Origin: Nemertoderma westbladi
Lineage: Eukaryota > Animalia > Xenacoelomorpha
Direction: 5' to 3'
NCBI GenBank assembly: GCA_032718475.1
Contig: JAUCBJ010006629.1
Location: forward strand, 71,242-135,241
Length of the DNA stretch: 64,000 nucleotides
Shown here: positions 11,368-57,744 of the stretch, one piece after another
Numbering within the stretch: position 1 is the stretch's first letter
Layout: each line of letters begins with the position of its first letter
Notes under the pieces: model-generated
What the model saw: the letters and a program-made list of their open reading frames with translations, nothing else
Databases searched by the model: none
What the model was told of the DNA's origin: nothing
Program-made: the position numbers and the translations under genes

Positions 11368-11425
11368 GGGTGTATCCGCATCCGGGTTTGTCCGCATATG
11401 CGGACAAAAAAGTATTTTATGTCCG

Positions 11426-23784: not shown

Positions 23785-25949
23785 TGATAAACAACCGCGA
23801 CCTCTATACTAACAGCAGAACTGTTGAACAGACCAATACCCGTTAATATCCTTCTGCCAACCTAATAAGTTCTCGTCTAACCAATAAGACACGAAGACTG
23901 CTCTACTGTTAAGTAAAGGGGCTCAGGAGCGTGATATTACTAAATTGTAAGGGTTGCTAAATACAAACCGCTACTTACCGTTAGATGGCGCTAATCTGCC
24001 GTCCGCTAATATATTTTACTAAATTTACACAACTCCTGCAAAATCGCTTGTTCCTTTATCTACCGATTGCTCGATAGAGAGCTAACTGTTCGAATCTATG
24101 AGCCACGCAGGAATAACCAAAACAATAAACCCGAGTCGGCTCCCTAAGCTTACTTAAGACGAGTGCGAGAGGCCTTGCACTCAGAGTATTCTTACGCCTA
24201 ATTTTATCACTATTAAAGCACGCTATTACCTACGTCTTTCTAATCGCGAATACTGGAGGTTCCCTAACGTAATGTGTGAATGCGAGAATATTTAAAATAT
24301 CAAAATGGTACAGTATCTGTTTCTACATGGATAATACCACTCCGAGTCTAAAACTGCCCGCGACTGGCTTTAGGCCAGCAAAATTACTAGCGTATCGTGC
24401 GTACCGAATAGTGCGTTCTAGCTGATTGCCCGCTAATGCAAATAACCGCTCAGCGTGAATAGTTTACAGTACACTAATTATTACCTTAGCTACTCTCCGC
24501 TATGCTGCGTACTAATTCTTAATTTTTTAGTAATTAATTACAGTCACAAATATTTAACAGCGTACTAATTACTAAGAGTTCCAGAATACGTAATTCTAAT
24601 TTATCACGCAACAGGTTTCGCTAGTAATAGCCTAAATTGCCGTATTACTTTGACCTAATCAATAACTAATTATTGTAACTAAGAAATAGAAATCAATCAA
24701 AGGAAAAAGAGCGCCTATCTAAGCATTCGTAATCTTAGGCACACTTCAATAACACACCAATCAGCGTTAGAAATCACAGTTTACAATTGTGCAATTCACT
24801 ACTCGTACTCCACACTCAACGTTGTAATACGCGCAGGCCTCTCCCGGGTACATCTAGGATTCCTAACTAACCCAATTCCTGCCCCCCTAATACTAAATAG
24901 AGACAAAACCTGGATCATCAGCCCCCTAGATACTGTACCGGCGATCGGTCTGCGTGCCGCAGTGCAAGATACCCGCCCGCAATGGTGACCCTGGCCAGCG
25001 TTGCCCGCTTTGAATCCTCCACTCTCTCCTAGTCGCTCAACCCCCCGATGCGCCCACCGCCCACTGGCACCTTAGCCCTCCATGATGCTAATAGCTACCG
25101 TAGCGGCGCATTCAAATCACAAAGTCTGACAGTCTCAGGAATCCCTTGGGATTATTGCGCAGAAAAGAATCACATAGAACCATCAATCAAAGGTAGAAAT
25201 CATAGTTCGATTGTAATTTGCAGTAATCGAAGGAATTATTGAGAAACACAAGCAAAGTAATCGCACTAGCAAATCATTCAAGAAATTAATCAAAATTAGC
25301 AAATTGCAGAAAATACGATATCCTAATACAAAATTAGAGACAGCTCAGCAAGTAAATTGTAACAGGGGTGTGTCATGTGATAAGGCATGAACATATGAAC
25401 AAATATATGAACAACAAAAAGCCCTACCGGCACACCGCCAATTTATAGGTGATCCGGATGGGGTGATGCAATAAGGTGACTCAATCGCTCTCCCATTGGC
25501 TCTCCAGTCCATGCTAGCATTAAACCAACCTGGAAGCAGTTAATCCAATAAGGAGACCGGATTGTAGCCCTATGCCCTCAAATTATTACCATATATGGTA
25601 ATGGATCACGTCTCTGGCTGCTGAATGGCCAGGACAGCGTCCCTATATGCTAGCCCTATCAAACTAATATCAGCAAGCACAAAATCCAGGGTCCGAGTAA
25701 ACTCGCTACCCTGGAACTATCTACATATATCCTAATACAAAATTACGTAGGTAGGGCTACATACTATACAAAATGAATGGATGCAAAATATATGGGCGTT
25801 TTAACTTCCTTACCTAAATGTCACCACACTGCGCCTTATCTAAATAATTATACTGCACAACGGACTAATATTACGTACAGTATAACGGACTAATACTGCA
25901 TACTGCATAATGGACTAATACTGTGGATACAGCGCCATATACCGTAACA
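23785..25949 (-). repeat. 3' LTR (2165 bp), preceded on the sense strand by a short purine tract GGAGCGG
   Basis: Direct repeat of 41707-43835. Confidence 0.97.
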
Positions 25950-26385
25950 CCGCTCCAAGGGAAATCATATAATGTTTCCCTCCAATTGTAGAAGAGTATA
26001 AGGTGATGTATACAAAACAAAATAAATTTCTTCCAACCAATCTAAATAACATAATAATTCTACTATTTACAAATATTGCCATAGATATTGCATAATGAAT
26101 TACATACAAATTAAATTTACAAAATATTGTTTCTCGTTCATTCTTACTACATAATGATTACTACATACAAAATCAAATATAAAAATTTTGCTAGGGCAAG
26201 TGAAAGGAGTAAGCCAAACCCGCAGGTTTGTCTCCCCAATCACTTCCTTCGCCTCTTTCATAATATAAATTCAAATAACTCAACTAGTGTATACGAGTCT
26301 AGTCGAAAATTTTCAAATGCTACAATATACATCAGAGCGACGATGATGTATATATCTAGAGTCTGTCGCCCTGTGCCATAATGTA

Positions 26386-29300
26386 TTATCGACCCGCTCC
26401 TGGGTTCTTTGGGCTCGCTCCTCTCTTTCGTCCCCTTCCCAGATACACTAATCTACCTCTAGTCGACTCCGTTGACGGCGTCCGTGAGGCGTCACTCCCC
26501 GGAACCGGCGACGACGTTCCCTGAGCCCCGACAGATTCTCGGCTCGAACTTCTCCCTCGGCCTCGTCCCAATTGTCGCGCTCCCGTGGTCGCTTCCGCCA
26601 ACTCTTCCTTCTGCAGTTGCACACGCGCTTTCTCAGACGCCCCCTGCGCCTTGCGCTGCAACCGTTGAGCTTCTATAATGGAGTGGTAGTGGTCGTCCTT
26701 GACTTGACGCTTGTCTTGGACCCCTCCTCCTGGTTCCTTCCGCGAGCCTTGAGCTCCAGCGGTCGTCGCTGTGGTCGCTGCGATCCTTTGTTCCTGTATC
26801 CTCTCGGCGGTCAATGAACCCACTGGCACATGAGTCAACAAGAATTCGTTGCGGTATTGTATAGCCGCCATCCTCCAATCACCTCGCGCGCGTACCACTT
26901 TTCTAGTCTCCGTAAATACACCCTTCGTGATGCGATCGCAAATAGCAACGAAGTTCCATGTGTACTTATTGTCCATGTTCAATTGTCTGAAGTATTCTCG
27001 GACTACGATAACTCCAGTGTTCTGTGGAAGGTCTTGAGCAGTTAGGATGAGCTCCTGATATTGTGGTAGCGATTGAAGATATGGCTCGTACGCAACATGC
27101 GATGGGTCTACCGCCCAAAACCCATATCCCGCTTTAAATGGTAACCAACGCATCTGCGCTTGAATATGGTAATCCGCCACACTCTCCCACTTATCTAACA
27201 TCTCCCGAAGTAGGTTAGCGCTATGGTTTTGAAAGGAATCATCTCGCAGCTGACATCTCGCGCTACGGTGTCCTTTTACTCCACAATATCCACATTGAGA
27301 AATGAAGACGGTGCACGTGTGAAACGAATGGTCGGTCTCATTGCACCAACGACAGACCTTATGCGCCGCCTCTATTACCGCGTCGCACGACTTTAGATTG
27401 TGCCTTGTGCTGCCGCACAATTTGCACCTACGCGCTTGTGGAAACCAGGCCCTCTCGTATATGAGGTCTCCAATCGGTTTCGCACTTCCTTCCTTCCCAA
27501 TGTCTAATACGATGTCGTCCTCTCCGGTCAACGGTTGTCGATCCGGAACAAAGTAAACATCCTCGCCCTTGTCCTCTATCTCCAATATTTCCTCCCGCGT
27601 TCGTTTCGGATATGTCTTCTCCACCGGAAGATCTACTCCGAACACCTCTACTAACGTTTCCGGCCAGCCCTCCTTAACAGGTCTATCAGCCTCCGAGTGG
27701 AAGGGAGTACCAAACCCGCGGGTTTGATTCCCGAACCACTTCTCCAAAGCTTCTGGCGTCGGATATTCCATCGACGGTCGGTCTCCCAAATCTCCGATGT
27801 TCTGTCGATATACTCCTTCGAATATCGCTAATCCTCTCCTCACCATCGACGTATTCTCTAACGATTGGTTGAAGAACGGGGTTAAGAAACGCTTCATCAC
27901 GTCGGATTGGATTCCCCCTTTCGAGCGAACGTATTGATCTCCTCCGAATACCAATGGATGACGCTTCAAAACTCGCGCAACGATATCCGCTAATAAACAA
28001 GTCACCGTGTTCGACTCAAGCACCAAATAATATTGTAGCGACGCACGGGGTGGCGCGCAAATGTTCCAATACACTAACGCTTGCCGCTTGAAGTGGGATT
28101 TGAACTCCGCTCCCGGTGGCGTGTTGTATTCGCCATACGCCTCCTCGTACTTCTTTTGCGTCTTCAACTTAAAGTCCCAATTATACAACAAGTGTGCTAT
28201 AAAGCCCATACCAGTCTTGGCAGAGTTGGGATACTCCCTATAAATTCCAATATCCTGTGCCCATAGCAACAATAGCTTGGTGTCGACAAACGGTCTCGGC
28301 AATCTATCTTCCAGATCAGTCATGGCGTTGAAGTCGCTCTCCAAATCGCTCTGGACTCCCGATCCCACCTTGACGTAATCTTGGTTGAGAATAGCCTCTC
28401 TAACCTTCTTTGGTAACATCCTGGCGTCGATACGCTCCGCTCCGTGCATACCTCCTCGCCTGCATACCTCCAAAATCTGTTCCCTAGGATCCTTCCCTTT
28501 CCGATATTGTGTCGTTATGATGGGCTCCGGTCTCTCTCGATCCGCCCTCACACGCATAAACACATGAGTCACACCATCGGCCGCACGAATTTGAATACAC
28601 TTGCTGGTCAAACATTCCTGATGGGACCCTCCTTCATTGTCGTAGAACATCACTCTCCAATCTTGCAGTGATTCCTCCGTTTTCCTCCACTGACGCTGAA
28701 TCTCATCTGATGGGGTCCACATGCGCTCGATCGCCTTGTGGTCATCATATCGGGTATAAGAACCCTTCCTCCTCAGCCACGTCTGGTCTACTTCCTCGTC
28801 ATCTGGGAATGTAGCCACCGCGACCCATACCTTGATGTACTTATCCAACCATCCGAATAGCTTACTCTCCTTCCCCGGAGCTCCAATCTTGTCCAAAGTG
28901 TCGTAATCTGTGATCTGCATTGGGACATCACGCAAGAACTTCGCGCATAAAACTTCCCGTAGACAGTCAACGTTCCAATGGTCCGCCATTCTTACCATCG
29001 GCAAGAATCGTATCGCTTCTCGCGACTCCGGATGATCTACTAATATCGCAGGTTCGGTGCCGTCGGAATAATACACCGGTCCGGGTTGAGATACGACCTG
29101 TGGAACAAATCCGGTCACTCTCCTCGTCTCCTCTTGATGTCTATCCGCGGTCTTATTATACTCCGCTATCCTGTTCTCAAATAACTCTTTCGCCTTCGCC
29201 GCTCGCTCCTCCTGCCGCAACGCGTCTATGTCGTCCTGATGCTCAGGCGTGAGGCTTCTCACTCGGTGAGGTGAAGTAAACGTAGTCCAGGGACTCGAGA

Positions 29301-30093
29301 GCTCCAAACCCGCGGGTTTGGTACCCGAGTCCCGCGCCGCTTCGCGCCGCGCCTCTAGATCCTTATAGGCTCGGTACAGCGAAATGGCCGCTGCCGTCTC
29401 TATCAAACTGGGTGTCGAACAGGGTTTAATCTCCGTATACGGATCTAATGTCGTAACGGTCGGCGTAATGGGTCTCGGAGGTCGCTTTCCGCTGAAGTCG
29501 ATACTGATCATCGGGTTGCTCATCGGGTAACCTCCCTCGTTGTATCTAAGGAATTGGTGAGCTGGACATCGCGTTAATATCGGTTCCGGATGTTGCTCGT
29601 CTAATCGGTCGGGAATCGCCACGTCCTGTTTATTCATGCATTCACCACACTTGTAGAAGAGCTTGTATACGCTGAAGACTTTCGGCGTCTCCTGATCCTC
29701 GCCTCGAGTCCTCCGATACAGGTGCATTCCGTCGAACTGGTCTCGGACTGCAGGTAGAGGCTCCTCGTGTCGTAAATACATATTCATATGGTATAGTCGT
29801 GCGATTTCCTCGTCCGGATCTGCGCTAATGTCGCACACGTCCAAAGCAAAGTCGTAGGGATACCGCGTGCGATACTCTCTCCGCAAGACTTCCATCCGGT
29901 CCCCCAACGCTCTCATTCTTTCTCTCCGTAATTCTTTATCATAACTTGGTTTATACTTCCCGTTCAGCTCCATCACGGACCGCCCATGGTAGTAAACGTT
30001 AGAGTCTTTACATCCTGGTCGCGCGAATGGTAGCTCCGCCTCCTCTCTGGCAGTAAATCCTCTGCGCGGTTGCGCTCTAATATCCCTCTCCAT
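26386..30093 (-). CDS. BEL ORF3 (1235 aa): DEDDy/WRN-EXD-like 3'-5' exonuclease domain plus three CCHC zinc knuckles
   Basis: Exonuclease motifs MFYDNEG, CIQIR, LPKKVREAILNQDYVKVGSGVQSD, FVDTK, GMGFIAHLL, YWN..LQYYLVLES. Knuckles CKLCGSTRHNLKSC, CRWCNETDHSFHTC, CGYCGVKGHRSARC. Confidence 0.8.
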   Translation of the reverse strand: MERDIRAQPRRGFTAREEAELPFARPGCKDSNVYYHGRSVMELNGKYKPSYDKELRRERMRALGDRMEVLRREYRTRYPYDFALDVCDISADPDEEIARLYHMNMYLRHEEPLPAVRDQFDGMHLYRRTRGEDQETPKVFSVYKLFYKCGECMNKQDVAIPDRLDEQHPEPILTRCPAHQFLRYNEGGYPMSNPMISIDFSGKRPPRPITPTVTTLDPYTEIKPCSTPSLIETAAAISLYRAYKDLEARREAARDSGTKPAGLELSSPWTTFTSPHRVRSLTPEHQDDIDALRQEERAAKAKELFENRIAEYNKTADRHQEETRRVTGFVPQVVSQPGPVYYSDGTEPAILVDHPESREAIRFLPMVRMADHWNVDCLREVLCAKFLRDVPMQITDYDTLDKIGAPGKESKLFGWLDKYIKVWVAVATFPDDEEVDQTWLRRKGSYTRYDDHKAIERMWTPSDEIQRQWRKTEESLQDWRVMFYDNEGGSHQECLTSKCIQIRAADGVTHVFMRVRADRERPEPIITTQYRKGKDPREQILEVCRRGGMHGAERIDARMLPKKVREAILNQDYVKVGSGVQSDLESDFNAMTDLEDRLPRPFVDTKLLLLWAQDIGIYREYPNSAKTGMGFIAHLLYNWDFKLKTQKKYEEAYGEYNTPPGAEFKSHFKRQALVYWNICAPPRASLQYYLVLESNTVTCLLADIVARVLKRHPLVFGGDQYVRSKGGIQSDVMKRFLTPFFNQSLENTSMVRRGLAIFEGVYRQNIGDLGDRPSMEYPTPEALEKWFGNQTRGFGTPFHSEADRPVKEGWPETLVEVFGVDLPVEKTYPKRTREEILEIEDKGEDVYFVPDRQPLTGEDDIVLDIGKEGSAKPIGDLIYERAWFPQARRCKLCGSTRHNLKSCDAVIEAAHKVCRWCNETDHSFHTCTVFISQCGYCGVKGHRSARCQLRDDSFQNHSANLLREMLDKWESVADYHIQAQMRWLPFKAGYGFWAVDPSHVAYEPYLQSLPQYQELILTAQDLPQNTGVIVVREYFRQLNMDNKYTWNFVAICDRITKGVFTETRKVVRARGDWRMAAIQYRNEFLLTHVPVGSLTAERIQEQRIAATTATTAGAQGSRKEPGGGVQDKRQVKDDHYHSIIEAQRLQRKAQGASEKARVQLQKEELAEATTGARQLGRGRGRSSSRESVGAQGTSSPVPGSDASRTPSTESTRGRLVYLGRGRKRGASPKNPGAGR

Positions 30094-30849: not shown

Positions 30850-33800
30850 CTAACTCTGTTTTGAGGCAGGAGACAAATTATAATCTCCCGTCTCGATACG
30901 TGTCTCCTCTAATAACACGATATCTTGGACCGGTCGGTCCAAGGTGTGCAAACCATTAGTTTTACACTTTTTTGGGTGCGGACACTTGCACCTAATTTTC
31001 ACAGTGACTGTGCGCACTATGTTTTGCACGTCTGGGTGTGTGTGCAAGATCACTCCTGTCTCCCAATACTTTCTCTTGACAATGGGTTCGGTTATCAACA
31101 CGTAATCTCCCCTTTGGAGACTCCGAACCGTTTTGTACCACTTTGTTCTGGTGGATATGGTGGGAAGATAGTATTCCCGCCAATATTCCCAGAATGTGTA
31201 CGCCACTAACTGTGTTACTTTCCAGCTCTTACGACTATATAGGTCGGCACTAATGGGTTCTGATGCCGGCACAAGAAATGCTGGACTCTGCATTAGCAAA
31301 TGATTCGGCGTTAATGCAACACCGTCTGGCAACATAGCTATCGGCCTCGAGTTTAGGGTATGCTCGATTTCAATGAAAGCTGTAACCAGTTCGTCATCGG
31401 TAAGTTGTTTGTTCACAGGCAACGTCTTAGCAATGGCCTGCTTTACAGAGCGAACTAAACGCTCCCAACTTCCTCCTCTCCAAGGACTTTCTGGAGTATT
31501 GAATCTCCATTCTACTCGTTGCGGCAAAAGTGCTGCAGAAATTTCCTTATTCTGTGCTGCTTTATGAGCCGCGTTCAACTCGCTATTCCCTCCGACAAAG
31601 TTTGTACCCTTGTCAGAGTAGAACGCCTTTACTAGTCCTCTCCTGGCCATAAATCTCTTCAAGGCCAGGAGCAGAGATTTGGTCGACATGTCTGCCACAC
31701 GCTCGATATGTATGGCTCTACTCGCCATACATGTCAGTAGCAGACCCCATCGCTTGTGGGTCAGCCGTCCACTCTTTGCTTCAATCGGACCAAAACAGTC
31801 CACCCCTGTATTCGTAAAGGGTGGGTCATATGCCTGCACTCTCGCTTCCGGGAGTTCAGCCATCTCCTGTTCCAATACTCTGGCGTTCACTCTCTTGCAA
31901 ACCAGACAGGCGTCGTACATAGTGCCTACTGCCCTGCTTGGCTGCAATAGAATGAATCGCTGTCTCGCTGCCGACAGACAGTGTAACCTTCCCGCGTGAT
32001 GCAACCTCTTATGTATATCCCATAGAATCGCTCTTTGCAATTCTATTGGGTGACTAGGGATTATCACTGGGAACCTAAACTGTGAGTTTATGTCGACAGT
32101 CTGGATTCTCGATCTATGACAAATTAAACCCTTATGGATTAATGGACTCCATTTTCTAAGGGGTTTATAGAGAACTGGTCGATGAGCCGATAATAGATGG
32201 AATTCTTTCGGGAAGGCACACATTTGATAATGCTTCAAATGCTTTAATTCCGCTTGATCAATCTCATCCTCTGTCAGAGGTCGTTTCAATTTCCGAATTC
32301 GCTCACTATTGGTGCTCAATGGTTCTCTCAAATGTTTCGAATGTTTTAAACAAAGGTACGAAACGTATCGGCTTAACCACGCAGTTCTTTTACAAATTGT
32401 CAGCCAAGAGGCAGACGAATTTAGTAATTTGTCATAAATACTGCATGACTCTAATGCCAGCGACGGTTGTCCTCTAACTAATGGAAGTTTCGAATCCAAA
32501 CCCGCAGGTTTGGAAACCAAAGGCTCCATTGTGTCGGTCATTTTCTGTCCGTCACTTACCAATTGTGACTGTCGTCTAGTCTGTAAGGGTGGTTTTACGT
32601 CGTAACTTACCCTTCCTGACCTAGTAGTCACGTAAGTCTGTTGGTCTGACAGGTCTCCGGGCCGCTCCAATAACTCTTCAGGCCGCTCCAATGACTCTTC
32701 AGGCCGCTCCAATGACTTAAGTTTGGCTTTAGACTTCGACTTAGAGACTTTCTCCACTTTGACTTCTGCATCTTCAGGCATCGGATTGGTCACTATCTTT
32801 AGTCGCTCTGGCCAATGTTCCTGTGTCCTCGTTAGAAAATCAGGTCCATGCAACCAAAACTCCTGCGACTCTTCCCGACAGAATTCCGCCGGCATTGCAC
32901 CTCTCGAAGTTATGTCGGCCGGGTTCAACACTCCCGGACAATGTCTCCATTGTTCCTTCGTCGAAAAATCAACGATCTGAGCGCGTCTATTGGCCACAAA
33001 TGTCTTTAGTGCATTATTGTCGGCCGCAATGTATACTAACACCAAGGATGCGTCCGTCCAATAGAATAAGGTCAATGTCGTGTCTAACTCCTCAGTTATT
33101 TGCTTACTTACCTCGACCGAAACTACAGCCGCCTGTAACTCTGCACGAGGGACAGTCATATATTTGACCGGCATTGTCTTTGATCTAGAAGTCACAAAGG
33201 CCGTCTCAAATTTGTCCTGACTTACCTCTCGGCGAAGGTAGGCTACCATACCAAAGCCGGTGTCACTTGCGTCACTGAATAAATGCAGTTCTAAATCAGC
33301 TGGAAATACCAGCTGATTCGGAAAGTAGGAACGGGGTACATCTATATTGTTCAATAGATGCAACTCGGCTTCCCACTCCCTCCACTGCTTTGCATGTATA
33401 GGAGATATTGGTTCGTCCCACTCTAAGTCGGACAACCAAATTTTCCTCATGCACGCTCGTGCCTGTAATATAACCGGACTGATAAAGTTCATCGGGTCAA
33501 ATAGTCTACTTAATGTCGATAAGCAAATTCTCTTTGTCAAAACTTTGTCTGGGCTACTGGGCTCAAATCTAACTCTTACCTGGAACTTATCTGAGTTCGG
33601 GTTCCAAGCGAGTCCCAGTACTCGCGCCATGGGGATTGGTTCTACCCCCAATTCTATGTCTCCGCTCCCGCGATCTTTTACCGGGAACGATTCTAATAGG
33701 GCCTCCGAATTAGTAGTGAACTTGGTCAGAGGAAATCCCCCTGTAGCCAAGCACTCTTGCAGGCCGTGAGCCACTTCTATGGCTTGTTCCGCTGTGTCCT

Positions 33801-36800
33801 TGGACACCAATCCGTCGTCCATATAGAAGTTTCTCAAGATGGACTCGATTACTTCTACTGGGTACTTACCAATCTGGGCTGTTGCCGTTTTCTTTAGAAC
33901 GAACAGCGTGCCATTCGGACTATCGCGGGCGCCAAATATCCTAACGTACATTTGGTATGTAACCACTGGGCCGGATAAGTCTTCATTCTCAAACCAGAGA
34001 AATCGAAGGCTATCCTGGTCTGCCTTACAGGCTCTTACCTGGTGGAACATCGCCTCGATGTCACAAGTAAATGCGAATCGCCGCTGTCTAAAACGCAACA
34101 GTATTCCAATCAAATAGTTATTCAGGTTGGGACCATCCATCAACTCTGAATTCAGGGACATACCTCTATAGACTGCTGCGCAGTCGTTGACTACTCGGAC
34201 TTTGTCTGGCTTGTCAGGGTGAGTCACATAGTGGTGTGGAAGGTAATAAGTCTGGTCTGTCACTAAGTCAGGGTCCTCTACCTTCCCAGCAAATCCCTTG
34301 GCGAAATAGTTGTTGATCTGGGCGCAATACTTCTCCCTAATGTCCGGATTCTTCAACAACCGAGCCCTTACTCCGTTTAATCTTTTCAAGGCTAAGCTGT
34401 AGTTGTTCTCCAACTTAGGTGGTTGTCGACGCCACAACATTCCAACTTCAAAATGTCCAGTCGGTAGCAGACGTATGGTGTCTTCCATCATCTCCAGCGA
34501 CCGTTTCTCATCAGTAGACATGGCTAGGTCATATCCACCGGGTTCCATTGCGTCCCTATCCAGCCATTCGACGGTTCTGGCTCCTGTCTCGAGGTCCTGG
34601 CGTATCAATTCCTTCTGTAATTCCTCCTCACTGTATTGGAAAATGTCTAGGTCTCGATATTTAGCCACTTGACCCTCCACTATGTCTGTATAAGTCAAAA
34701 CGTTAGTCAGATAAGTAGCGTGGGCCGCTGAACCAGACCCACGGGTCTGATAACAGTAGTCCTCGGGTTCACTATCTGTCCGGTCGTTGTGAAGCGGTTC
34801 CGACAACCTAACATTATCGGGAATCAACTCCTCGTCCGACTCGCTAAAGTCACTATAGTGGTCAATACAGGTTCTCCTAAACTCGTCTATGTCTGGTGGT
34901 TCTACTAACGGTGGTTGAGTTATAGGCTGTAATTCATCGTATCTGTCCATTGGCTTGTCGCCACCTGTAAACTCATAAGACATGGGTACTCGTGTATACC
35001 AACCTAGTATGGTCCTATGGGCATGTGGTCCATTGACATGCGGCTCAGCTGGTCTCGTTTCCCATATCTGGTGTGCGATCAGCTGTTCTGCACCAATTAA
35101 CATAGAAACATTCCTATAACCTACCTGGTGTCTGGGTATCCTGAGCTTGTCAAAATACTCCTGTGCTATGGGACTCATCGGCGGCACCTTACCTAACTGC
35201 CTGCCGAATCCCTTCATAGCTAGACACTTAAATCCGTCCAATGGCAAAGCTTTCCGTTCTTGTCGAGTGTGTTGGTCTCTCGGAAGTAGGGAATCTAGTT
35301 CCACCGAAATTCTGTGTCCCTTGAGGTCTCCTACCCCATGCATAGACTTCAACTCTATTTGGATCTCCTCGGCGTCCTGGAAGCTAGAAACAGCTCTCGC
35401 CACTTCCTCGTCGATATAAGATAATGTGGACGCAGTGTCCAACATCAAATATATTCGCTTCGATCCCTTATCGCCAGTGAGTTTCACCGGAATCACGCTA
35501 AATATTTCCGACGTGGCCGATGATAAATACGTCCGCGCGCTGGTCGATGAACTATCCGCGGTGAAACCTTGGCAGGTCACTTCTCTCGCGCTCGACTCGC
35601 CATCCTCGTCCGACGAACCTGGTTGGTAACCATCGTCCTGGATGCCAGTGTACGTATTCCTCCTTATCGATACGGGTTCTTTGCTCCCCTTCCTTTGAGG
35701 ATTTCGCTGTAAGTAACGGTCCGTTGGGGTGTGGAAATCCGCATGTAGCAACTTGTGATGTAGTCTGCCGCATTCCATGCATCCGTCCTTGCTGTTCGGG
35801 CACTGCCGCCGTATATGACCTGGCGCAAGACATGCCCAACAGGTGTCCAACGTCCGCACTTGAACTCTTCTCTGTTCCGAATTTAATTCTTTGAACCGTC
35901 TGCAACTATCTAACTTATGGTCGTCAGATCTTACCTCCTTTAGTAAACAGTATTGGCAACCTACAAATCCATCCGGCAACTCCTGTTGCTTTAACCTAGG
36001 TCTATCTAACCGCTCACCTGACCATACTCGCGAGTCTGATCTAAAGGCTGGGGTACTCGAATTATATCTGTCTACTGAGTTAAATGTCACAGTGGTCCTA
36101 TCATCGTCAAAACTTACCATAGACTTACCGGTAACAGGTTTAGACTCCCTCATATTCTCTTCTGAGAAGTTTGATTTCATCTCTGCTACTGCGTCTGTGG
36201 CTATCATGTCATGAATATGCTGAAGTGTCAACACCTTACCTTGGCCCTCCAACTTATTCTCTAATTTGCGCCATTTCTGTCTGTAACGCATGTTTAAACG
36301 TCTTATTACGCTTTTCAAAACTTCGGCGTGATCACCATGATGAGGTAGATTCACCGTCCTCAAGATGTCCAATGCGTTCGAAATAGCGTTCGCTAAGTTC
36401 AACAGCTCTAACGGAGTTGTAATCCTTCCGCCCTTACCCAAGTCTTCTACTATCGACTGCGCCATCTTGGTTTTATTCCCGTAGATGTCACTAAGCGTCT
36501 TCATCGCTAACTCAAATGCTCTTTCATTGCCGACGAAATTATCAGCAATGGCTCTAGGTTCTCGATGGAGCATCTGAAGCAAATAGTTGAACTTTTCGTT
36601 GGGAGTAAAGGTGCTGTTGGTTAGCTGCTCGTCGACATAGGTTTTGAAGGTCCTCCAATGTTTATGGTTACCCATAAACTTCTGGGGTTGCTGCGTCGGC
36701 AGTCCTTGCCTAGCAGCAAACTTACCTATGTCCCTAAGGGTTGCGTCGTTCCGGGTTAACAAATGGTTTAGTTCCGCAGGGTTGTTAAGTCTGGTCCTTT

Positions 36801-37269
36801 CCCGGTGGTTCCAACTTACCTGCTCCGCGTCCGTCCTTCTTTCCTTATAGTTTCGGGACTTCTGACGTCTCATTTCTTCCTCTTCATCGCTTGACTCAGT
36901 GTCAGTCCTTAGCGCTCGCGATGGTTTGCGCGCCGAGGCCCTGCGCTTGCGTCCTTCTGGGCTCCTCTCTGATGACTCCGAGGCGCACCCATGAGGCGGA
37001 CGCTGTCCCACCACCCCTGGGGCCAGTCTGACTGATGTTATTATCAGACCGGGCCGGAGGGTGGCCCGATGCTTCCCGGGCTCTGTTTTCGGTCCCCCGA
37101 TCACACCGGCACAGCTCGTCGAACGTGTAGCCAGATGGGCGGCTACTGTCAACTTACTGTGGCCTGACTGTACATTGAGCCAACTCAGAGAGTCAACCGG
37201 CGGGTGGACCAGTCGATAGCGATCAAGCACCAAGGTCGCCCTTGGGCCTAACCGACGGTCTTGTCCCAA
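30850..37269 (-). CDS. pol: BEL/Pao Gag(core)-Pol polyprotein; true start uncertain
   Basis: DUF1759-like KFMGNHKHWRTF..EKFNYL, three Cys-His boxes, protease LDTAS, RT YMDD, RNase H HLFSDAS, integrase GVDCFGP/SDKGTNF/WERLVRSVK and C-terminal FWEYWREYYLP. Confidence 0.95.
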   Translation of the reverse strand: MGQDRRLGPRATLVLDRYRLVHPPVDSLSWLNVQSGHSKLTVAAHLATRSTSCAGVIGGPKTEPGKHRATLRPGLIITSVRLAPGVVGQRPPHGCASESSERSPEGRKRRASARKPSRALRTDTESSDEEEEMRRQKSRNYKERRTDAEQVSWNHRERTRLNNPAELNHLLTRNDATLRDIGKFAARQGLPTQQPQKFMGNHKHWRTFKTYVDEQLTNSTFTPNEKFNYLLQMLHREPRAIADNFVGNERAFELAMKTLSDIYGNKTKMAQSIVEDLGKGGRITTPLELLNLANAISNALDILRTVNLPHHGDHAEVLKSVIRRLNMRYRQKWRKLENKLEGQGKVLTLQHIHDMIATDAVAEMKSNFSEENMRESKPVTGKSMVSFDDDRTTVTFNSVDRYNSSTPAFRSDSRVWSGERLDRPRLKQQELPDGFVGCQYCLLKEVRSDDHKLDSCRRFKELNSEQRRVQVRTLDTCWACLAPGHIRRQCPNSKDGCMECGRLHHKLLHADFHTPTDRYLQRNPQRKGSKEPVSIRRNTYTGIQDDGYQPGSSDEDGESSAREVTCQGFTADSSSTSARTYLSSATSEIFSVIPVKLTGDKGSKRIYLMLDTASTLSYIDEEVARAVSSFQDAEEIQIELKSMHGVGDLKGHRISVELDSLLPRDQHTRQERKALPLDGFKCLAMKGFGRQLGKVPPMSPIAQEYFDKLRIPRHQVGYRNVSMLIGAEQLIAHQIWETRPAEPHVNGPHAHRTILGWYTRVPMSYEFTGGDKPMDRYDELQPITQPPLVEPPDIDEFRRTCIDHYSDFSESDEELIPDNVRLSEPLHNDRTDSEPEDYCYQTRGSGSAAHATYLTNVLTYTDIVEGQVAKYRDLDIFQYSEEELQKELIRQDLETGARTVEWLDRDAMEPGGYDLAMSTDEKRSLEMMEDTIRLLPTGHFEVGMLWRRQPPKLENNYSLALKRLNGVRARLLKNPDIREKYCAQINNYFAKGFAGKVEDPDLVTDQTYYLPHHYVTHPDKPDKVRVVNDCAAVYRGMSLNSELMDGPNLNNYLIGILLRFRQRRFAFTCDIEAMFHQVRACKADQDSLRFLWFENEDLSGPVVTYQMYVRIFGARDSPNGTLFVLKKTATAQIGKYPVEVIESILRNFYMDDGLVSKDTAEQAIEVAHGLQECLATGGFPLTKFTTNSEALLESFPVKDRGSGDIELGVEPIPMARVLGLAWNPNSDKFQVRVRFEPSSPDKVLTKRICLSTLSRLFDPMNFISPVILQARACMRKIWLSDLEWDEPISPIHAKQWREWEAELHLLNNIDVPRSYFPNQLVFPADLELHLFSDASDTGFGMVAYLRREVSQDKFETAFVTSRSKTMPVKYMTVPRAELQAAVVSVEVSKQITEELDTTLTLFYWTDASLVLVYIAADNNALKTFVANRRAQIVDFSTKEQWRHCPGVLNPADITSRGAMPAEFCREESQEFWLHGPDFLTRTQEHWPERLKIVTNPMPEDAEVKVEKVSKSKSKAKLKSLERPEESLERPEELLERPGDLSDQQTYVTTRSGRVSYDVKPPLQTRRQSQLVSDGQKMTDTMEPLVSKPAGLDSKLPLVRGQPSLALESCSIYDKLLNSSASWLTICKRTAWLSRYVSYLCLKHSKHLREPLSTNSERIRKLKRPLTEDEIDQAELKHLKHYQMCAFPKEFHLLSAHRPVLYKPLRKWSPLIHKGLICHRSRIQTVDINSQFRFPVIIPSHPIELQRAILWDIHKRLHHAGRLHCLSAARQRFILLQPSRAVGTMYDACLVCKRVNARVLEQEMAELPEARVQAYDPPFTNTGVDCFGPIEAKSGRLTHKRWGLLLTCMASRAIHIERVADMSTKSLLLALKRFMARRGLVKAFYSDKGTNFVGGNSELNAAHKAAQNKEISAALLPQRVEWRFNTPESPWRGGSWERLVRSVKQAIAKTLPVNKQLTDDELVTAFIEIEHTLNSRPIAMLPDGVALTPNHLLMQSPAFLVPASEPISADLYSRKSWKVTQLVAYTFWEYWREYYLPTISTRTKWYKTVRSLQRGDYVLITEPIVKRKYWETGVILHTHPDVQNIVRTVTVKIRCKCPHPKKCKTNGLHTLDRPVQDIVLLEETRIETGDYNLSPASKQS

Positions 37270-38123
37270 GTGGGCTTGTGCTACCCAACATGGAATATTG
37301 ACACGTTTTCACCCGCCTCGCCGGCAGTATTGAGGGGAAGTAAGTTCCACAAACAATACTGACTATCTCGAAAGCTAGGAACAAGTAACCACTTACCAGT
37401 CCTATACACGTGTACTCAACAGATGTTCACAATATCAAGTACACTACGGTAAACACAAAATCGGACACATACCATGCACACACAGAGGACATAATCGTGA
37501 AAGACAAAATCGGTGTCAAAATCGGGAGGGACTAGTTGTATCGACTTGAGAGAGAATGAGAAAGTCGAGAGTACTTTATTTTACCGACAAGGTAAAATAA
37601 CTTGTGTGCACAAAGTATGCTGGGGCGCAGTAAAGTATGGTCCTACTAATACCAGCGGCGTCTTGTCCAACCGGCAAGGTTTCCCATACTCACTCGCAGT
37701 GGCCACACATACAATCACGTGTACTCACATACCCACAGCAACAGAAAGCTCATCTCAGACCTAAACACACTCCAAAAACCAATCAGCTGAACATGGAGAC
37801 AATAACATATAGTATCAAAAAAAACGGAACAGCTGACGGTCAATGGCACACATCCAAGCCCCAAAGCTAACTGCCACTGCTCGCCCACATACAAATCACA
37901 GTTCATACCACATGAACCACAAATCACGCCATGCCACCACCCCTACTGTGTACAGGACTGGCAGTACGGCAACAGGCCGACTAGACGGTACCACGGCACC
38001 ATGTCGATTCATGGTTCGCTAGACACGAGGGCCTTCAGTATCTCCCTTGCACTTAGAGGAAGCATTTAACTTTAACGTGTCCCCAGACCCTCACGAGTCC
38101 GCCGCCGCCTGTTTTGGGCACAC

Positions 38124-40511
38124 TTATAGAGACCTCACCTCCTTAGGCACCCAAGCTTCCTCAATAAATCTTTCTGCCGAATTTTCGAAATTGGGATTAT
38201 GGATATTCGGGACAGGCGTCCTTACCTGAGGTCTATGTGGTATAGTCTCCTCCGATATGCGTACTCGTTGACTAGGCTGGACTTTATCTAACTCAGGCCT
38301 GCTAGGATTAGAATTACTTCTTACCTGGGCTGCTTCCTTTAACCGTAGGTTGCTAAGCATGTCCGTTATAGGTTGGATGTGCGGCGATATAGCTTGCGCT
38401 AAACTAGCACTTAACTCGTCCCTCGTAATAAATTCCTGGCTAGGGTTCTGTTGTATAGTCGGCTCTATCTGAGTAATCCGCTGTCTCTCATATGATCCCT
38501 CTTCCGGTTTAACCCGGAAGTTCTCCGTCGAACTGGGTCGGCGCTCCGTCCGCGTATTCCAAACCCGCGGGTTCGGTTCGCCAAGTACTCGTCCTGTCGG
38601 AGTTTCTTCTCTAAATTCTCCGTTCGCTCGTTCGGTGTATAGTGGTGCGGTGTTCCGATGACGTAGATCCTGGGCGATAGGTGAAGCACTAATACCAACT
38701 GGCGTGCGATATGTAGAGAACGGTTTAACGATCCGTGTACTCGTAATAGCTGGACCGGGTATAGGAATTCTGGTCGTCATTGACTCGCGTATAGTCGGAG
38801 TTCTCGCTTCCTGTTCGGCCTTCTGCAGTGCGAACAGTTCTCGCAACTCTGTCCCTACACTCGCCCCACATTCTTCGATCATTCGCATCCCCTTCTCGGC
38901 GATTTCATTCGCCTTCCTAGTCCGTTCTTCGCTCTCTAAACTTAATCTCGCACTTTCCAACTGCGCCAGTTTACGCTCTTCTTCTTCCCTCGCTCGTCTC
39001 GCTGCGCTCTCTTCTTCCACTCGCGCCTTTTCTTCATACAATGCGCGTCTTCTTTTCTCGATCTCGAGTTCGCGTTCCTTGCGTCCGCGTTCGAGTTGAA
39101 GCTCGCGCTCCTTCTGTTCACGATCGAGTTTCTTGCGCTCGCGTTCGGCTTGGAGTTCGCGTTTCTTCGCTTCCTGTTCGCGTTCGAGTTGGAGTTCGCG
39201 TTTCTTCGCTTCCCGTTCGCATTCAAGTTGGAGTTCGCGTTTCTTCGCTTCCCGTTCGCATTCGAGTTGGAGTTCGCGTTCTCTCTGTTCGCGTTCGAGT
39301 TCCTCGCGCTCGCGCTCGGCTTGGAGTTCACGTTCCCTTTGCTCGCGTTCCGCTCGCTCGCGCTTACTTATCTCTTCCAACTCTCGTAACTCTGCGTCCA
39401 ACTTACGTGTGCGCTCCCGTTCCCGCTCGGCTTCCTTCCGTGCTTCCTGTGCACGCAAAACTTCCGCCTGCTGTTCGTCTAGTCGGCGTCTTCTCTCCTC
39501 CGCCGAGTTGTGAGAAACAAGGGATCTAGCACATATTACCTTACCTCGCGCGTGACTAACCTGGGAATCGCCGCTGTCTCTAGATGCGTCGTCGGGTGGA
39601 GTCAACGTCCTCTGTTGAATGTTCTCCGTCGTCGGTAGCACCTGGCCTGGTACCACCACTCCATTCTGCATCAGCCAGCTAGTAACTTCCCTCTGATAAC
39701 GGCGCTCTTCCTTATCTTGGATCTCTTCTCGCTCCACTAACTCTCTCAACTCTGCGTCACTCACTTGAGTCGCCTGCGTTTGTGATGCCCATAGCAGCCA
39801 GTTCTCCGTCCTAACTCGTCGGAATCGCTCCGATAACTCGCGGTGCTCTAACAAGGCTGCTAAAACCCTGTCGTAAATCCTCGTTGCTACGTCGCTCGAC
39901 TGAGACTCTACTGCCTTCTTCGCTAGGACTGCAAGCTCCTCTGTCTGCTTGAATAACGCTGAGTTATATCCTCTTCTAATCTCTACTAACTCTACCCTCC
40001 CGATGTTCGCTGGGTCAGCTAACATCTTCCTTACCTTGTCCGCCGTCCGAGTTATATGTCCGGCATGCGCGCGAAGTTTCTTCTTTATCGCGATATCAAG
40101 TTCTCTCTCGCTTACCTGACTCACACTCGGTGGACTTGAAGGATTATTTCGGGAACTACGGGTACTCCTAACAGCCGTCGGGACCACGGCACTTACCATA
40201 CCCACAGGTCTGGAAACCGGGCTCCGGGCTCTCGCTTCTGCTACACTACCCTCCCTATCACTCACCTCTGTCCGGGTTGCTGTACAATCCTTCCTTACAG
40301 TAGCGGTAGGGGATCCTAATACTATTACCTGAGGCTGCTGTTCTTCCTCACTAGTCACTGTCTCGTCCTCCTGTTCACTTACGTCAGCGTCGCTCGCTGC
40401 GTCGTCATAGTCGGCATTGTCATCAACAGTAATATTTACGCTATCGTCAGTCGGCGGTCCAGCCGCCGTCTCATAGCTGTCCTCTAGTGCCTCTTTGTCT
40501 GAGACACTCAT
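38124..40511 (-). CDS. BEL ORF1 (795 aa): acidic N-terminus and long E/R/K coiled coil, Gag N-terminal-like
   Basis: ATG-initiated open frame downstream of the 5' LTR; tandem RELQLE(C/R)EREAKK repeats. Confidence 0.8.
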   Translation of the reverse strand: MSVSDKEALEDSYETAAGPPTDDSVNITVDDNADYDDAASDADVSEQEDETVTSEEEQQPQVIVLGSPTATVRKDCTATRTEVSDREGSVAEARARSPVSRPVGMVSAVVPTAVRSTRSSRNNPSSPPSVSQVSERELDIAIKKKLRAHAGHITRTADKVRKMLADPANIGRVELVEIRRGYNSALFKQTEELAVLAKKAVESQSSDVATRIYDRVLAALLEHRELSERFRRVRTENWLLWASQTQATQVSDAELRELVEREEIQDKEERRYQREVTSWLMQNGVVVPGQVLPTTENIQQRTLTPPDDASRDSGDSQVSHARGKVICARSLVSHNSAEERRRRLDEQQAEVLRAQEARKEAERERERTRKLDAELRELEEISKRERAEREQRERELQAEREREELEREQRERELQLECEREAKKRELQLECEREAKKRELQLEREQEAKKRELQAERERKKLDREQKERELQLERGRKERELEIEKRRRALYEEKARVEEESAARRAREEEERKLAQLESARLSLESEERTRKANEIAEKGMRMIEECGASVGTELRELFALQKAEQEARTPTIRESMTTRIPIPGPAITSTRIVKPFSTYRTPVGISASPIAQDLRHRNTAPLYTERANGEFREETPTGRVLGEPNPRVWNTRTERRPSSTENFRVKPEEGSYERQRITQIEPTIQQNPSQEFITRDELSASLAQAISPHIQPITDMLSNLRLKEAAQVRSNSNPSRPELDKVQPSQRVRISEETIPHRPQVRTPVPNIHNPNFENSAERFIEEAWVPKEVRSL

Positions 40512-41695
40512 AGTCTAAATAATATTTGCCTTCCGGCAAAAATCTCGCAAAAGTTCGAGATATAATTATAATTTAACCGAAATACGGTCAAATTATTTGT
40601 CAAATAATCAGTTGGTCCAAATGTCAAATAAATTCGCAATGCAATATTGTGAATTTAATGGGGTATATAGTTATAGCAAATACTAACACAATATTTAAAC
40701 AAAAAATATTATTATATAGCTACTATATAGTATTAAATACCGGTATAGCACAAAATAACTTTGAATCTAATACAAAATATTCAAAATAAACTTGCCACCC
40801 GAATATTTCTAATTTTATATATATAGCTCCAATCAACGTAATTTTAATTTCAAATATTATATGTATCCACTAGCGCGTGGCTACATCTTCGGGTTGCGAC
40901 TCTCTCTAACTCTCTCTCTAACTTGAGCGATTCAAAAAACCATGGCCGGCTAAACCTAAATATCCTAACTAATAAATTGAGTTCAGCTTCGCAGTTAAAC
41001 AACCGGTAATTTTTTACTGCTTCCACAAACACAGTGGTGCCAACAGAACAACTAACCTTGTTTGCTGTGAGATTCCACGTCCGCGTCCAAAGATTCAGGC
41101 CCTTCGCTGATTGCAAACCGAACCCGCAGACCCACACGAACCCCAAACTCAGAAGTTCCGTCTTGCCATGTATCTCCAGATGGTATAAAATAACTAAGCG
41201 GTTACCTAACATACCGGTACAAAACTCTAGAATTTTACAAAATAATTTTGACCGAAAACTGAATTCTCGCAAACCTAGCTAAAATTTTCAAAAAACTTAC
41301 TAATTACTGTTTGCCCTAAGGCCTAAGGAACTGCTGTATTCGCAATTAGCAAAACGCACTACCGTACATTCACTGTATGCAGCACAGTAAGTAAAACAGT
41401 ACACCAACCTAACAGCCTAATGATACTGTGTGTGGTACGGCAAACAAATGTCCTTCTACCGTCCGCAGTAACAACAATCAGCCTAATGTACTACTGTACT
41501 ATTGTACGCAGCCAGTGAATACAGTAATCTAAACTAACAGCCTAATAGAATAAATATACTCAATGTCTTACTGTACGCTAGCCTATAGCCTACAGCAGAC
41601 GATCACGTGCTCTAACTTATTACTTAATACTGTGATACTACTAATCAGCCTAAGAATACTCTATTGACTGTACGCTACAGCCTACAGCCAATAAA

Positions 41696-41706
41696 GCGCG
41701 TATTAC
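41696..41706 (-). other. Primer-binding-site position: GTAATACGCGC, non-tRNA and complementary to the LTR-internal 11-mer at 42746-42756
   Basis: Directly abuts the terminal CA of the 5' LTR; no TGG; exact 11-bp inverted repeat. Confidence 0.6.
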
Positions 41707-43835
41707 TGATAAACAACCGCGACCTCTATACTAACAGCAGAACTGTTGAACAGACCAATACCCGTTAATATCCTTCTGCCAACCTAATAAGTTCTCGTCT
41801 AACCAATAAGACACGAAGACTGCTCTACTGTTAAGTAAAGGGGCTCAGGAGCGTGATATTACTAAATTGTAAGGGTTGCTAAATACAAACCGCTACTTAC
41901 CGTTAGATGGCGCTAATCTGCCGTCCGCTAATATATTTTACTAAATTTACACAACTCCTGCAAAATCGCTTGTTCCTTTCTCTACCGATTGCTCGATAGA
42001 GAGCTAACTGTTCGAATCTATGAGCCACGCAGGAATAACCAAAACAATAAACCCGAGTCGGCTCCCTAAGCTTACTTAAGACGAGTGCGAGAGGCCTTGC
42101 ACTCAGAGTATTCTTACGCCTAATTTTATCACTATTAAAGCACGCTATTACCTACGTCTTTCTAATCGCGAATACTGGAGGTTCCCTAACGTAATGTGTG
42201 AATGCGAGAATATTTAAAATATCAAAATGGTACAGTATCTGTTTCTACGTGGATAATACCACTCCGAGTCTAAAACTGCCCGCGACTGGCTTTAGGCCAG
42301 CAAAATTACTAGCGTATCGTGCGTACCGAATAGTGCGTTCTAGCTGATTGCCCGCTAATGCAAATAACCGCTCAGCGTGAATAGTTTACAGTACACTAAT
42401 TATTACCTTAGCTACTCTCCGCTATGCTGCGTACTAATTCTTAATTTTTTACTAATTAATTACAGTCACAAATATTTAACAGCGTACTAATTACTAAGAG
42501 TTCCAGAATACGTAATTCTAATTTATCACGCAACAGGTTTCGCTAGTAATAGCCTAAATTGCCGTATTACTTTGACCTAATCAATAACTAATTATTGTAA
42601 CTAAGAAATAGAAATCAATCAAAGGAAAAAGAGCGCCTATCTAAGCATTCGTAATCTTAGGCACACTTCAATAACACACCAATCAGCGTTAGAAATCACA
42701 GTTTACAATTGTGCAATTCACTACTCGTACTCCACACTCAACGTTGTAATACGCGCAGGCCTCTCCCGGGTACATCTAGGATTCCTAACTAACCCAATTC
42801 CTGCCCCCCTAATACTAAATAGAGACAAAACCTGGATCATCAGCCCCCTAGATACTGTACCGGCGATCGGTCTGCGTGCCGCAGTGCAAGATACCCGCCC
42901 GCAACGGTGACCCTGGCCAGCGTTGCCCGCTTTGAATCCTCCGCTCTCTCCTAGTCGCTCAACCCCCCGATGCGCCCACCGCCCACTGGCACCTTAGCCC
43001 TCCATGATGCTAATAGCTACCGTAGCGGCGCATGCAAATCACAAAGTCTGACAGTCTCAGGAATCCCTTGGGATTATTGCGCAGAAAAGAATCACATAGA
43101 ACCATCAATCAAAGGTAGAAATCATAGTTCGATTGTAATTTGCAGTAATCGAAGGAATTATTGAGAAACACAAGCAAAGTAATCGCACTAGCAAATTATT
43201 CCAAGAAATTAATCAAAATTAGCAAATTGCAGAAAATACGATATCCTAATACAAAATTAGAGACAGCTCAGCAAGTAAATTGTAACAGGGGTGTGTCATG
43301 TGATAAGGCATGAACATATGAACAAATATATGAACAACAAAAAGCCCTACCGGCACACCGCCAATTTATAGGTGATCCGGATGGGGTGATGCAATAAGGT
43401 GACTCAATCGCTCTCCCATTGGCTCTCCAGTCCATGCTAGCATTAAACCAACCTGGAAGCAGTTAATCCAATAAGGAGACCGGATTGTAGCCCTATGCCC
43501 TCAAATTATTACCATATATGGTAATGGATCACGTCTCTGGCTGCTGAATGGCCAGGACAGCGTCCCTATATGCTAGCCCTATCAAACTAATATCAGCAAG
43601 CACAAAATCCAGGGTCCGAGTAAACTCGCTACCCTGGAACTATCTACATATATCCTAATACAAAATTACGTAGGTAGGGCTACATACTATACAAAATGAA
43701 TGGATGCAAAATATATGGGCGTTTTAACTTCCTTACCTAAATGTCACCACACTGCGCCTTATAATACTACATGGACTAATACTGCATACTGCATAATGGA
43801 CTAATACTGTGGATACAGCGCCATATACCGTAACA
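41707..43835 (-). repeat. 5' LTR (2129 bp)
   Basis: Sense TGTTACGG...TTTATCA; about 7 substitutions and 2 indels versus the 3' LTR. Confidence 0.97.
43330..43422 (-). promoter_or_regulatory. Candidate LTR promoter
   Basis: Sense CCAAT (43422-43418), AP-1-like TGAGTCA (43406-43400) and TATAAA (43370-43365). Confidence 0.45.
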
Positions 43836-57256: not shown

Positions 57257-57744
57257 TTATCATTGCAATAATCCTTTTTTTACCTACCTTTTATATACCT
57301 TTTTTTGCAATAATAATTAACTATAAGAAAGTTTTAGATGTCAGTTATATTCGAGGAAAAATTCAGGGTTGGAGCAAGTTAAATATTATTAATCAAATTT
57401 CAAATATAATGACAAATATATTTCGGTAGCACAGTGCTATCATTATCACTAAAGTACAAATTCTAATATAAATTGAAGAATTGACTAACGTAACGTATGA
57501 CTTGTTATCTGTTGAAAATTTCACTAAAAACAGAATAAATGTTGTAACCAAAAAACAGAAGACATAGGCAGGGAAACGTATAGGGACCGTAGGTGCATAT
57601 TGGAGAGCCTAACGAATTATATTTATAATTATATTTGTAATTTGATTAATAATATTTAACTTGCTCCAACCCACAATTTTCCATCATAATATTGGATGTC
57701 AACTCAGTGGAAAGACAGCTTAATGATAATTATACTTTATGCAG

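Follow-up and report, generated by a model that had tools for sequence, protein, structure and literature searches.

A recent 20-kb BEL/Pao element that probably primes reverse transcription with its own LTR RNA and carries a predicted exonuclease gene that is probably accessory

The window, a 64,000-nucleotide stretch of Nemertoderma westbladi DNA (contig JAUCBJ010006629.1), contains a recent 20-kb BEL/Pao element that in our favoured and reasonably probable reading primes reverse transcription with its own LTR RNA through an 11-base pairing, while the predicted exonuclease encoded by its third gene is probably an accessory unneeded for priming. Judged from sequence, self-priming looks to be clade-wide and independent of this third gene, ORF3.

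The element occupies positions 23785–43835 of the minus strand (20,051 bp, TG..CA ends) and is flanked by a 5-bp target duplication, CCAAT. Its 5′ LTR (41707–43835, minus strand; 2,129 nt, TG..CA) is followed by a body that ends in a short purine tract, GGAGCGG, a weak PPT candidate directly before the 3′ LTR (25950–25956, minus strand), and the 3′ LTR itself spans 23785–25949 (minus strand; 2,165 nt). The host locus is a Maverick/Polinton-like element (18091–57039, no strand assigned) with terminal inverted repeats, a TACAGT duplication, an integrase, an ATPase and an adenoviral-type protease, and the insertion splits its long ORF at 23787/43836; we take this ORF to be PolB-like from its motifs, Pfam having returned no match for it. 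The first-pass annotation had called the BEL element young and intact. Its two LTRs differ at 8 of 2,128 aligned columns, besides small indels. “Intact” is too strong because gag-pol lies in two ORFs with a non-coding stretch between them and because other copies lack about 1.2 kb.

ORF1 (38124–40511, minus strand; 795 aa) is charged and repetitive and matched neither Pfam nor the fetched proteins; it is likely the N-terminal part of Gag, since relatives have 250–540 extra N-terminal residues. Between it and the start codon of ORF2 lies the non-coding stretch (36874–38123, minus strand), of which about 1.2 kb is missing from other genomic copies, as seen in contigs of two DNA runs and of one run guessed to be RNA. 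In run X5, this portion is far deeper than the element, and it is likely a separate repeat. ORF2 (30850–36873, minus strand; 2,007 aa) encodes DUF1759, Cys-His knuckles, a protease motif, RT (YMDD), Peptidase_A17, an integrase and DUF5641, so that the LTR-flanked gag-pol has the PR-RT-RH-IN order and the Pao-type RT of BEL/Pao. Its domain order, Peptidase_A17, DUF1759, DUF5641 and 5-bp duplication are those of Belpaoviridae, which the ICTV describes as tRNA-primed from an 18-nt site complementary to a host tRNA 3′ end (tRNA-Arg/Gly), with genomes of 4.2–10 kb and LTRs of 0.2–1.2 kb (PMC8742986). In contrast, the window element measures 20 kb with LTRs of 2.1 kb, its third gene is an exonuclease and not env, and it has no such 18-nt site. 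Because the tRNA primer site is missing, we treat it as a variant form within this RT lineage and not as a textbook BEL/Pao element.

The primer-binding site (41696–41706, minus strand) abuts the 5′ LTR directly: GTAATACGCGC (41706–41696) begins at the first base past the LTR and has no TGG. Its best match among 83 distinct tRNA genes, an incomplete set not from this host, was 7 nt, and a control element gave a 16-nt match to tRNA-Lys with the same set; Rfam returned nothing meaningful, and no tRNA genes were found within the window. The site is an exact complement of 11 contiguous bases of the element's own LTR, at 42756–42746 in the 5′ copy (42746–42756, minus strand; about 585 nt past the predicted transcription start) and at 24834–24824 in the 3′ copy (24824–24834, minus strand), a feature of the Tf1/sushi group. 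This pairing makes priming by self RNA likely. Both of the underlying claims of the first-pass annotation, a primer site of non-tRNA type and its complementarity to an LTR-internal 11-mer, were therefore confirmed, the latter with p of about 0.001–0.004: matches of at least 11 nt at +1 occurred in a fraction of 0.0008–0.0024 of 5,000 Markov-shuffled LTRs (four Markov orders), or of 0.004–0.005 when +1 to +4 were allowed, and 0 of 2,000 shuffles of the primer site reached 11 nt. Among 40 of the 80 variant rows, none fell in either 11-mer, which says nothing about conservation because the other half is hidden. In one contig of run X3, the core of the sequence standing in place of the 11-mer differs.

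The same signature recurs among relatives. In a quick tree of 28 rows, built with no named reference elements and with the window on a long branch (1.42), the RT groups with L001–L007 and with marine-invertebrate BEL proteins (SH-aLRT 98), to which its RT region is 37–43% identical, and the tRNA-site elements L047, L048 and L050 stand apart. Screening 19 loci for LTR pairs left nine with no usable pair (L051–L053, L055–L060; L058 was resolved as L007). In six clade members (L002–L007) both the LTR and the primer site can be read, L001 and L008–L011 being too short. These relatives, which belong to five families in three assemblies, are distant (33–38% identity, best match), and where the LTRs of L004 and L007 end was set partly by hand. 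A TGG primer site is absent from all six. L003 pairs its primer site with its own LTR contiguously (11/11), L004, L005, L006 and L007 do so at 11/11 across a GT..AG junction with GTAAGT or GTGAGT donors, and L002 reaches 10/11 across a GT-AG junction. Most relatives therefore appear, from their sequences, to assemble the primer by splicing out an LTR intron, and the primer of the window element is contiguous; a splice-made primer within the window's own LTR was rejected (best 8 nt, p 0.83). Under a loose splice null, the five junction cases had per-element p values of 0.003–0.18. A strict null gave p ≤ 0.0015 for L004–L006, with L002 scoring 8 (p 0.027); it removed the L007 junction, which left a best score of 8 (p 0.057), and the tRNA-site control L047 yielded a 7-mer (p 0.048). 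Because the signature recurs across the RT clade, tRNA-independent self-priming is supported more strongly than the first-pass annotation could establish. Searches of viral contigs with pol were empty.

These relatives also bear on whether the pairing might be a chance match or a structural stem, with some host RNA, for instance a fragment of a tRNA, serving as the primer. None of four predicted folds contains the 11-bp duplex (pair probability 0), and a fold forced to include it is less stable by 5 or 22 kcal/mol, varying with the length folded; moreover, another part of the LTR is complementary to 12 nt of the leader, and the tRNAs compared were not the host's own. Nevertheless, +1 is precisely where the match begins, five other elements show the 11-base length again in different letters, and in the sister pair L005/L006 the change is matched on both sides (donor CAC versus TAA, primer sites GTG versus TTA), so that we rate a non-primer role as rather improbable, if slightly less so than the other alternatives considered below. 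The leader (41324–41662, minus strand) is itself predicted to form nested stems that pair with LTR positions 42106–42188 in a U5-leader-like manner.

In the self-priming reading, an RNA starting near 43340, the start predicted from the sole sense TATAAA of the LTR (43365–43370, minus strand), would carry the 11-mer, which would anneal to the primer site with the assistance of Gag. The element's RT/RNase H would then most likely cut where the duplex ends on its 3′ side, as happens in Tf1, and so leave a 3′-OH at the U5 boundary; next most likely, host exonucleases would trim a short LTR transcript. The primer would be contiguous in the window element and is apparently spliced together from an LTR intron in most relatives. 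In the five splice-junction relatives, AATAAA/ATTAAA follows the primer 3′ end within about 30 nt, which makes it plausible that the primer is cut or trimmed out of a short LTR transcript. In the window LTR, by contrast, no AATAAA closely follows the 11-mer, and about 1 kb of LTR lies beyond the primer. The earlier observation that the LTR has no sense AATAAA/ATTAAA is correct, but it is no evidence because the absence is within chance (base composition predicts no more than about 0.8 and 1.0 occurrences), and the variant hexamer AGTAAA occurs at 42453 and 41942.

A stricter parallel to Tf1, in which RNase H frees the 11-base primer (PMC7175516), would have the transcript start at 42756 and its first 11 bases released in the same way. 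The shared 11-base length, the pyrimidine-purine context at 42757/42756 and the divergence of variant contigs from 42754–42755 onward are consistent with such a start. There is, however, no TATA near −30, the sole sense TATAAA lying 614 nt upstream, and exon 1 of the splice-junction relatives holds just 3–6 primer bases, which would demand an implausibly short exon 1 if the primer were simply a 5′ end. We accordingly consider this geometry unlikely.

ORF3 (26386–30093, minus strand; 1,235 aa) is an accessory gene with no predicted membrane helix (maximal hydropathy 1.34). Residues of about 478–720 (27934–28662, minus strand) form a predicted DnaQ/DEDD-type 3′–5′ exonuclease domain (Atlas PF01612 cluster, 0.91), and three CCHC zinc knuckles of the form C-X2-C-X4-H-X4-C begin at residues 890, 914 and 934 (aa 890–947; 27253–27426, minus strand), followed by a motif common to 8/8 relatives. 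ORF3 found no match in Pfam, in a single-sequence search of PDB or in a word-indexed protein search, and a full HMMER scan recovered eight remote relatives, named at most “hypothetical”; its first 440 residues carry no assigned domain. The low-confidence ORF3 model (pLDDT 47) is closest to Nibbler among the matches listed (Z 7.8, rmsd 4.2, 170 aligned), and the 50 matches listed are exonucleases or polymerases with such domains; Foldseek returned nothing for this model at E 0.001 or better, a threshold at which the ORF3 relative P0124 has 28 structure matches, with Nibbler at E 3e-6. Of the D-E-D-D catalytic acids that, with a tyrosine, mark DEDDy exonucleases, ExoII (D583) aligns and ExoIII is E693 instead of D (relatives: 2/8 E, 5/8 D, 1/8 gap), whereas ExoI (D485/E487) was assigned by eye, MAFFT placing the region in another register and a profile of the relatives' ExoI finding no match in ORF3. 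Of the DEDDy exonuclease with RNA-binding knuckles proposed in the first-pass annotation, the DnaQ/DEDD-type fold and the knuckles hold up, and the D-x-E stays a by-eye assignment. ORF3 is most likely an RNA-binding 3′–5′ exoribonuclease of Nibbler/RNase D type whose substrate would be either RNA of the element or small RNAs of the host; Nibbler is a small-RNA 3′ trimmer. The DnaQ/DEDD fold is shared with Nibbler, EXD2, WRN exonuclease and Trypanosoma RNase D (PDB 7jw2, 6k17, 2fbx, 7c45), the last of which also joins it to a CCHC knuckle, but identity to the window's model is about 10–13% and the activity of ORF3 is predicted only. No ORF3-family loci were found in viral contigs and no locus of the window's own ORF3 in metagenomes. 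An alignment scan gave four short loci from metagenomes: one, L061 (2.4 kb), is a genuine relative with no LTR, and the other three are gag knuckles. Five contaminated assemblies yielded knuckle matches only.

Could ORF3 make the primer, by trimming the unpaired 3′ tail of an annealed LTR-containing RNA back to the duplex, as had been suggested? Its predicted Nibbler-like fold and its three RNA-binding knuckles would suit such a role, as would the position of the relatives' primer just before a poly(A) signal, and a specialised enzyme could be of use in an LTR that runs on for about 1 kb past the primer and has no canonical signal. Yet the ORF3 profile has no match in any of the six readable clade members, in which only about 0.15–0.8 kb separates the end of pol from the 3′ LTR. 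Since all six have neither TGG nor ORF3, the presence of ORF3 and the loss of the tRNA site do not go together, an association that the first-pass annotation had proposed to test, and because these relatives self-pair likewise, ORF3 is probably an accessory and not the primer maker. The matched change expected of the two pairing sequences does occur, in L005/L006, but in elements that lack ORF3. Moreover, catalytic competence is putative, given the status of ExoI, and unrelated rotifer LTR lineages as well as Penelope-like elements also carry DEDDy ORF3s (PMC5408684). Primer making by ORF3 is therefore unlikely: of the earlier model, tRNA-independent self-priming fits the clade and a 3′-tail geometry fits its splice-junction members, and nothing ties the trimming to ORF3. 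A broader version, to which we likewise give little weight, is that a BEL lineage swapped the tRNA for an LTR-derived, mostly splice-built primer and that a giant intron-less family captured a Nibbler-like exonuclease trimming the LTR transcript to the 11-bp duplex; if true, ORF3 would be an element-encoded primer-maturation enzyme and a third route to the minus-strand primer.

In having a primer site that complements 11 bases of its own LTR RNA and no tRNA, the window element resembles Tf1/Tf2, Tj1, Tf1/sushi, plant Tcn1 and TAR (PMC7175516, PMC4600332, PMC6317226). Those elements are Ty3/gypsy or copia, whereas the window pol is Pao-type, and the primer of Tf1 and Tj1 is the mRNA 5′ end, whereas that of the window element is probably internal and that of most relatives apparently splice-assembled. 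The window element would work like the Tf1/sushi group but is no member, its RT being Pao-type and not Ty3/gypsy. We found no report of self-priming for BEL/Pao in the open-access literature. If true, the self-priming BEL clade would represent an independent origin of tRNA-free priming, and a splice-made primer would link the initiation of reverse transcription with splicing by the host; the window element would add an intron-less, double-size, multi-copy example.

For ORF3, the nearest parallels by description are the RNase D-like third genes downstream of pol in the bdelloid rotifer elements Juno/Vesta and Athena/Terminons, which likewise have no membrane helix and one altered catalytic acid (PMC5408684). 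The window protein differs in its BEL/Pao host element, its length of 1,235 aa and its three CCHC knuckles, and it extends the occurrence of DEDD ORF3s beyond rotifers and beyond Ty3/gypsy.

The LTR retrotransposon occupies 23785-43835 (20,051 bp, minus strand); its termini are TG..CA, and a CCAAT target duplication flanks it. Its LTRs, 2,129 and 2,165 nt long, are mismatched at 8 of 2,128 aligned positions, and the insertion is therefore recent. Domains found in ORF2 include DUF1759, Peptidase_A17, an integrase zinc-binding domain and DUF5641. Its RT region shares 37-43% identity with the best-listed 120 of 713 hits, and the named ones among these come from corals, anemones, echinoderms, molluscs and further marine invertebrates; the element is a BEL/Pao retrotransposon. 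The family is multi-copy and variable, 8 kb of the element being covered by 13,328 and 5,524 contigs in two DNA runs. The copy had been called intact in the first-pass annotation, which is not plainly so: gag-pol is split over two ORFs, and about 1.2 kb between them is absent from other copies (contigs in sequencing runs X1, X3 and X4). The missing sequence belongs to a stretch from ORF1 to ORF2 (36874-38123) that is richer in T and matched none of the retrieved proteins and no other part of the window. In run X5, depth over this stretch is ~1,000-3,200 versus 30-70 over ORF1, which suggests a separate repeat, although depth summed over contigs is a hint only. Preceding the 3' LTR is a purine tract (GGAGCGG, 25950-25956), unusually short compared with the G-rich tracts of related BEL loci (L002-L007).

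The primer site, the 11 bases following the 5' LTR (41706-41696), lacks TGG and is the exact complement of an LTR stretch at 42756-42746 (the 11-mer). The earlier reading that the element has no tRNA-type PBS and that the PBS position instead complements an LTR-internal 11-mer is thereby borne out. The pairing begins at +1; among 5,000 Markov-shuffled LTRs, a fraction of 0.0008-0.0024 had an equally long match there, and primer-site shuffles never reached one (0/2,000). The best match of the primer site to 83 distinct tRNA genes (bacterial, with some from other animals' contigs) was 7 nt, and the same set gave a 16-nt match to tRNA-Lys for the control L054. Predicted folds count against the primer reading, as the 11-bp duplex is absent from them and imposing it carries a penalty of 5 or 22 kcal/mol. 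Three nested stems enclosing the primer site are predicted between the leader (41324-41662) and the LTR (42106-42188). The reported lack of sense AATAAA or ATTAAA in the LTR was confirmed, but with ~0.8 and 1.0 expected it lies within chance and loses its significance. The sole sense TATAAA in the LTR is at 43370, and the 11-mer therefore probably lies ~585 nt inside the transcript.

For comparison we used LTR-bearing BEL elements on animal contigs contaminating three bacterial assemblies. Several bacterial genome bins (G001-G005) hold eukaryote-type contigs with BEL retrotransposons and tandem tRNA arrays, likely host contamination. In a quick RT-RH tree (36 sequences), the window's element, on a long branch, groups with L001-L007 and marine proteins (SH-aLRT 98); three loci with TGG sites (L047, L048 and L050) and L054 fall outside this clade. 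LTR and primer site are both readable in six clade members, whose sites never start with TGG (0/6). Contiguous 11-mer pairing recurs in L003 only, the other readable relatives reaching 8. The primer sites of L004, L005, L006 and L007 pair at 11/11 positions, and that of L002 at 10/11, with sequence of the element's own LTR joined across a GT..AG junction. The donor sequence is GTAAGT or GTGAGT, and a T-rich tract leads up to acceptors with a final CAG. The primer sites of L002 and L004-L007 are thus predicted to pair with an exon-exon junction inside the LTR. Under a strict null, p was at most 0.0015 for L003-L006, 0.027 for L002 and 0.057 for L007 with its junction filtered out (0.003 in the other, loose splice null); values for the three controls with tRNA sites were 0.048, 0.32 and 0.98. 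Compensatory change, a check proposed earlier, appeared in L005 and L006: at a shared donor, two of the three exonic bases differ between them, and their primer sites differ correspondingly.

Within the element's own family, the 11-mer of one X3 contig is preserved at both ends but changed in its five central bases, three further X3 contigs keep the 11-mer and diverge downstream, two joints resume at 42754-42755, and run X5 has low cover at the 11-mer and at the leader. We treat this variation as a lead only. At an X3 loose end at 42755, seen in one contig, the variant 11-mer is followed by one base and then a perfect sense-strand GTAAGT donor-like motif, a hint that some subfamilies may carry an intron right after the primer.

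The first-pass annotation had proposed that an LTR-RNA self-primer is trimmed back to the duplex by the exonuclease of ORF3. The six clade members have no room for this gene and no match to the ORF3 profile (0/6), so the expected co-occurrence of ORF3 with loss of the TGG-PBS fails here. Because these six ORF3-less members pair and lack TGG, self-pairing is a clade trait without need of ORF3; self-priming is supported, its coupling to ORF3 is not. Beyond the pairing, we infer that an LTR-initiated RNA would most likely supply the 11-mer, which would anneal to the primer site, and that RT/RNase H would cut the duplex at its 3' edge, the cut described for Tf1 (PMC7175516). In relatives of the splice type, the primer is followed within ~30 nt by a poly(A) hexamer, so a plausible primer is a short LTR transcript that has been spliced and then cut or trimmed at its tail. 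With this the originally proposed geometry survives, though the clade does not need ORF3.

ORF3 (26386-30093) gave no match in single-sequence searches of Pfam, PDB and a word-indexed protein search. A full HMMER scan recovered eight relatives (514-727 aa) that share with it an exonuclease-like region, three knuckles and a motif after them; a six-relative profile matches ORF3 at aa 559-718. With ORF3's own predicted model, which is poor (pLDDT 47), Foldseek returned no match at E 0.001. A wide structural search with this model yielded exonuclease-domain proteins throughout among the matches listed, of which Nibbler ranked top (Z 7.8, rmsd 4.2, 170 aligned). The model of one relative, P0124, had 28 matches at E 0.001 or better, including Nibbler, EXD2, WRN and Rrp6, and the Atlas returned a PF01612 cluster at 0.91. 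An exonuclease-type fold is thus supported. Of the extra DEDDy exonuclease with knuckles described earlier, the fold and the three knuckles stand and the activity is unsupported, as ExoIII has E in place of D and ExoI was assigned by eye only. The eight relatives and a metagenome locus (P0121-P0128 and L061) form an unnamed protein family with a DEDD-type exonuclease, three CCHC knuckles and a conserved following motif, present in several sequence collections.

The best reading of ORF3 is an accessory exonuclease that binds RNA and resembles the ORF3 products of the rotifer elements Juno and Vesta; such proteins are found in Penelope-like elements too, and the authors of PMC5408684 had already proposed for them 3'-end processing of element RNA or a part in silencing. 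A coupled system with ORF3 as primer trimmer appears quite unlikely. Searches of the open-access literature listed no report of self-priming or of a DEDDy ORF3 in BEL/Pao; the supplements of PMC3118150 contain many BEL sequences and might show how common self-pairing is. The element is a new variant that combines known features, probable self-priming of the Tf1 kind, here within a BEL lineage, and an accessory exonuclease of rotifer type, and it is unusually large.

The insertion lies within a Maverick/Polinton-like element (18091-57039) with terminal inverted repeats (393-nt arms, 99% complementary), a TACAGT duplication and genes for an integrase, an ATPase and an adenoviral-type protease. 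Further ORFs are TBP-like (45073-45618) and RING-like (54835-55287). The BEL insertion splits a long ORF, which from its motifs we take to be PolB-like. A 190-aa Maverick ORF (47358-47930, minus strand) without a Pfam hit starts with a D-x-Q motif in a context that by eye is DEDD-like. Elsewhere, ~7 kb of a strongly G-skewed 42-bp tandem repeat (4309-11440) has short inverted repeats on either side, near 3902 and at 11538-11611, and an apparently intronless gene at 57696-61148 (plus strand) encodes a Roc-COR protein of 1,150 aa that carries two CARD domains.
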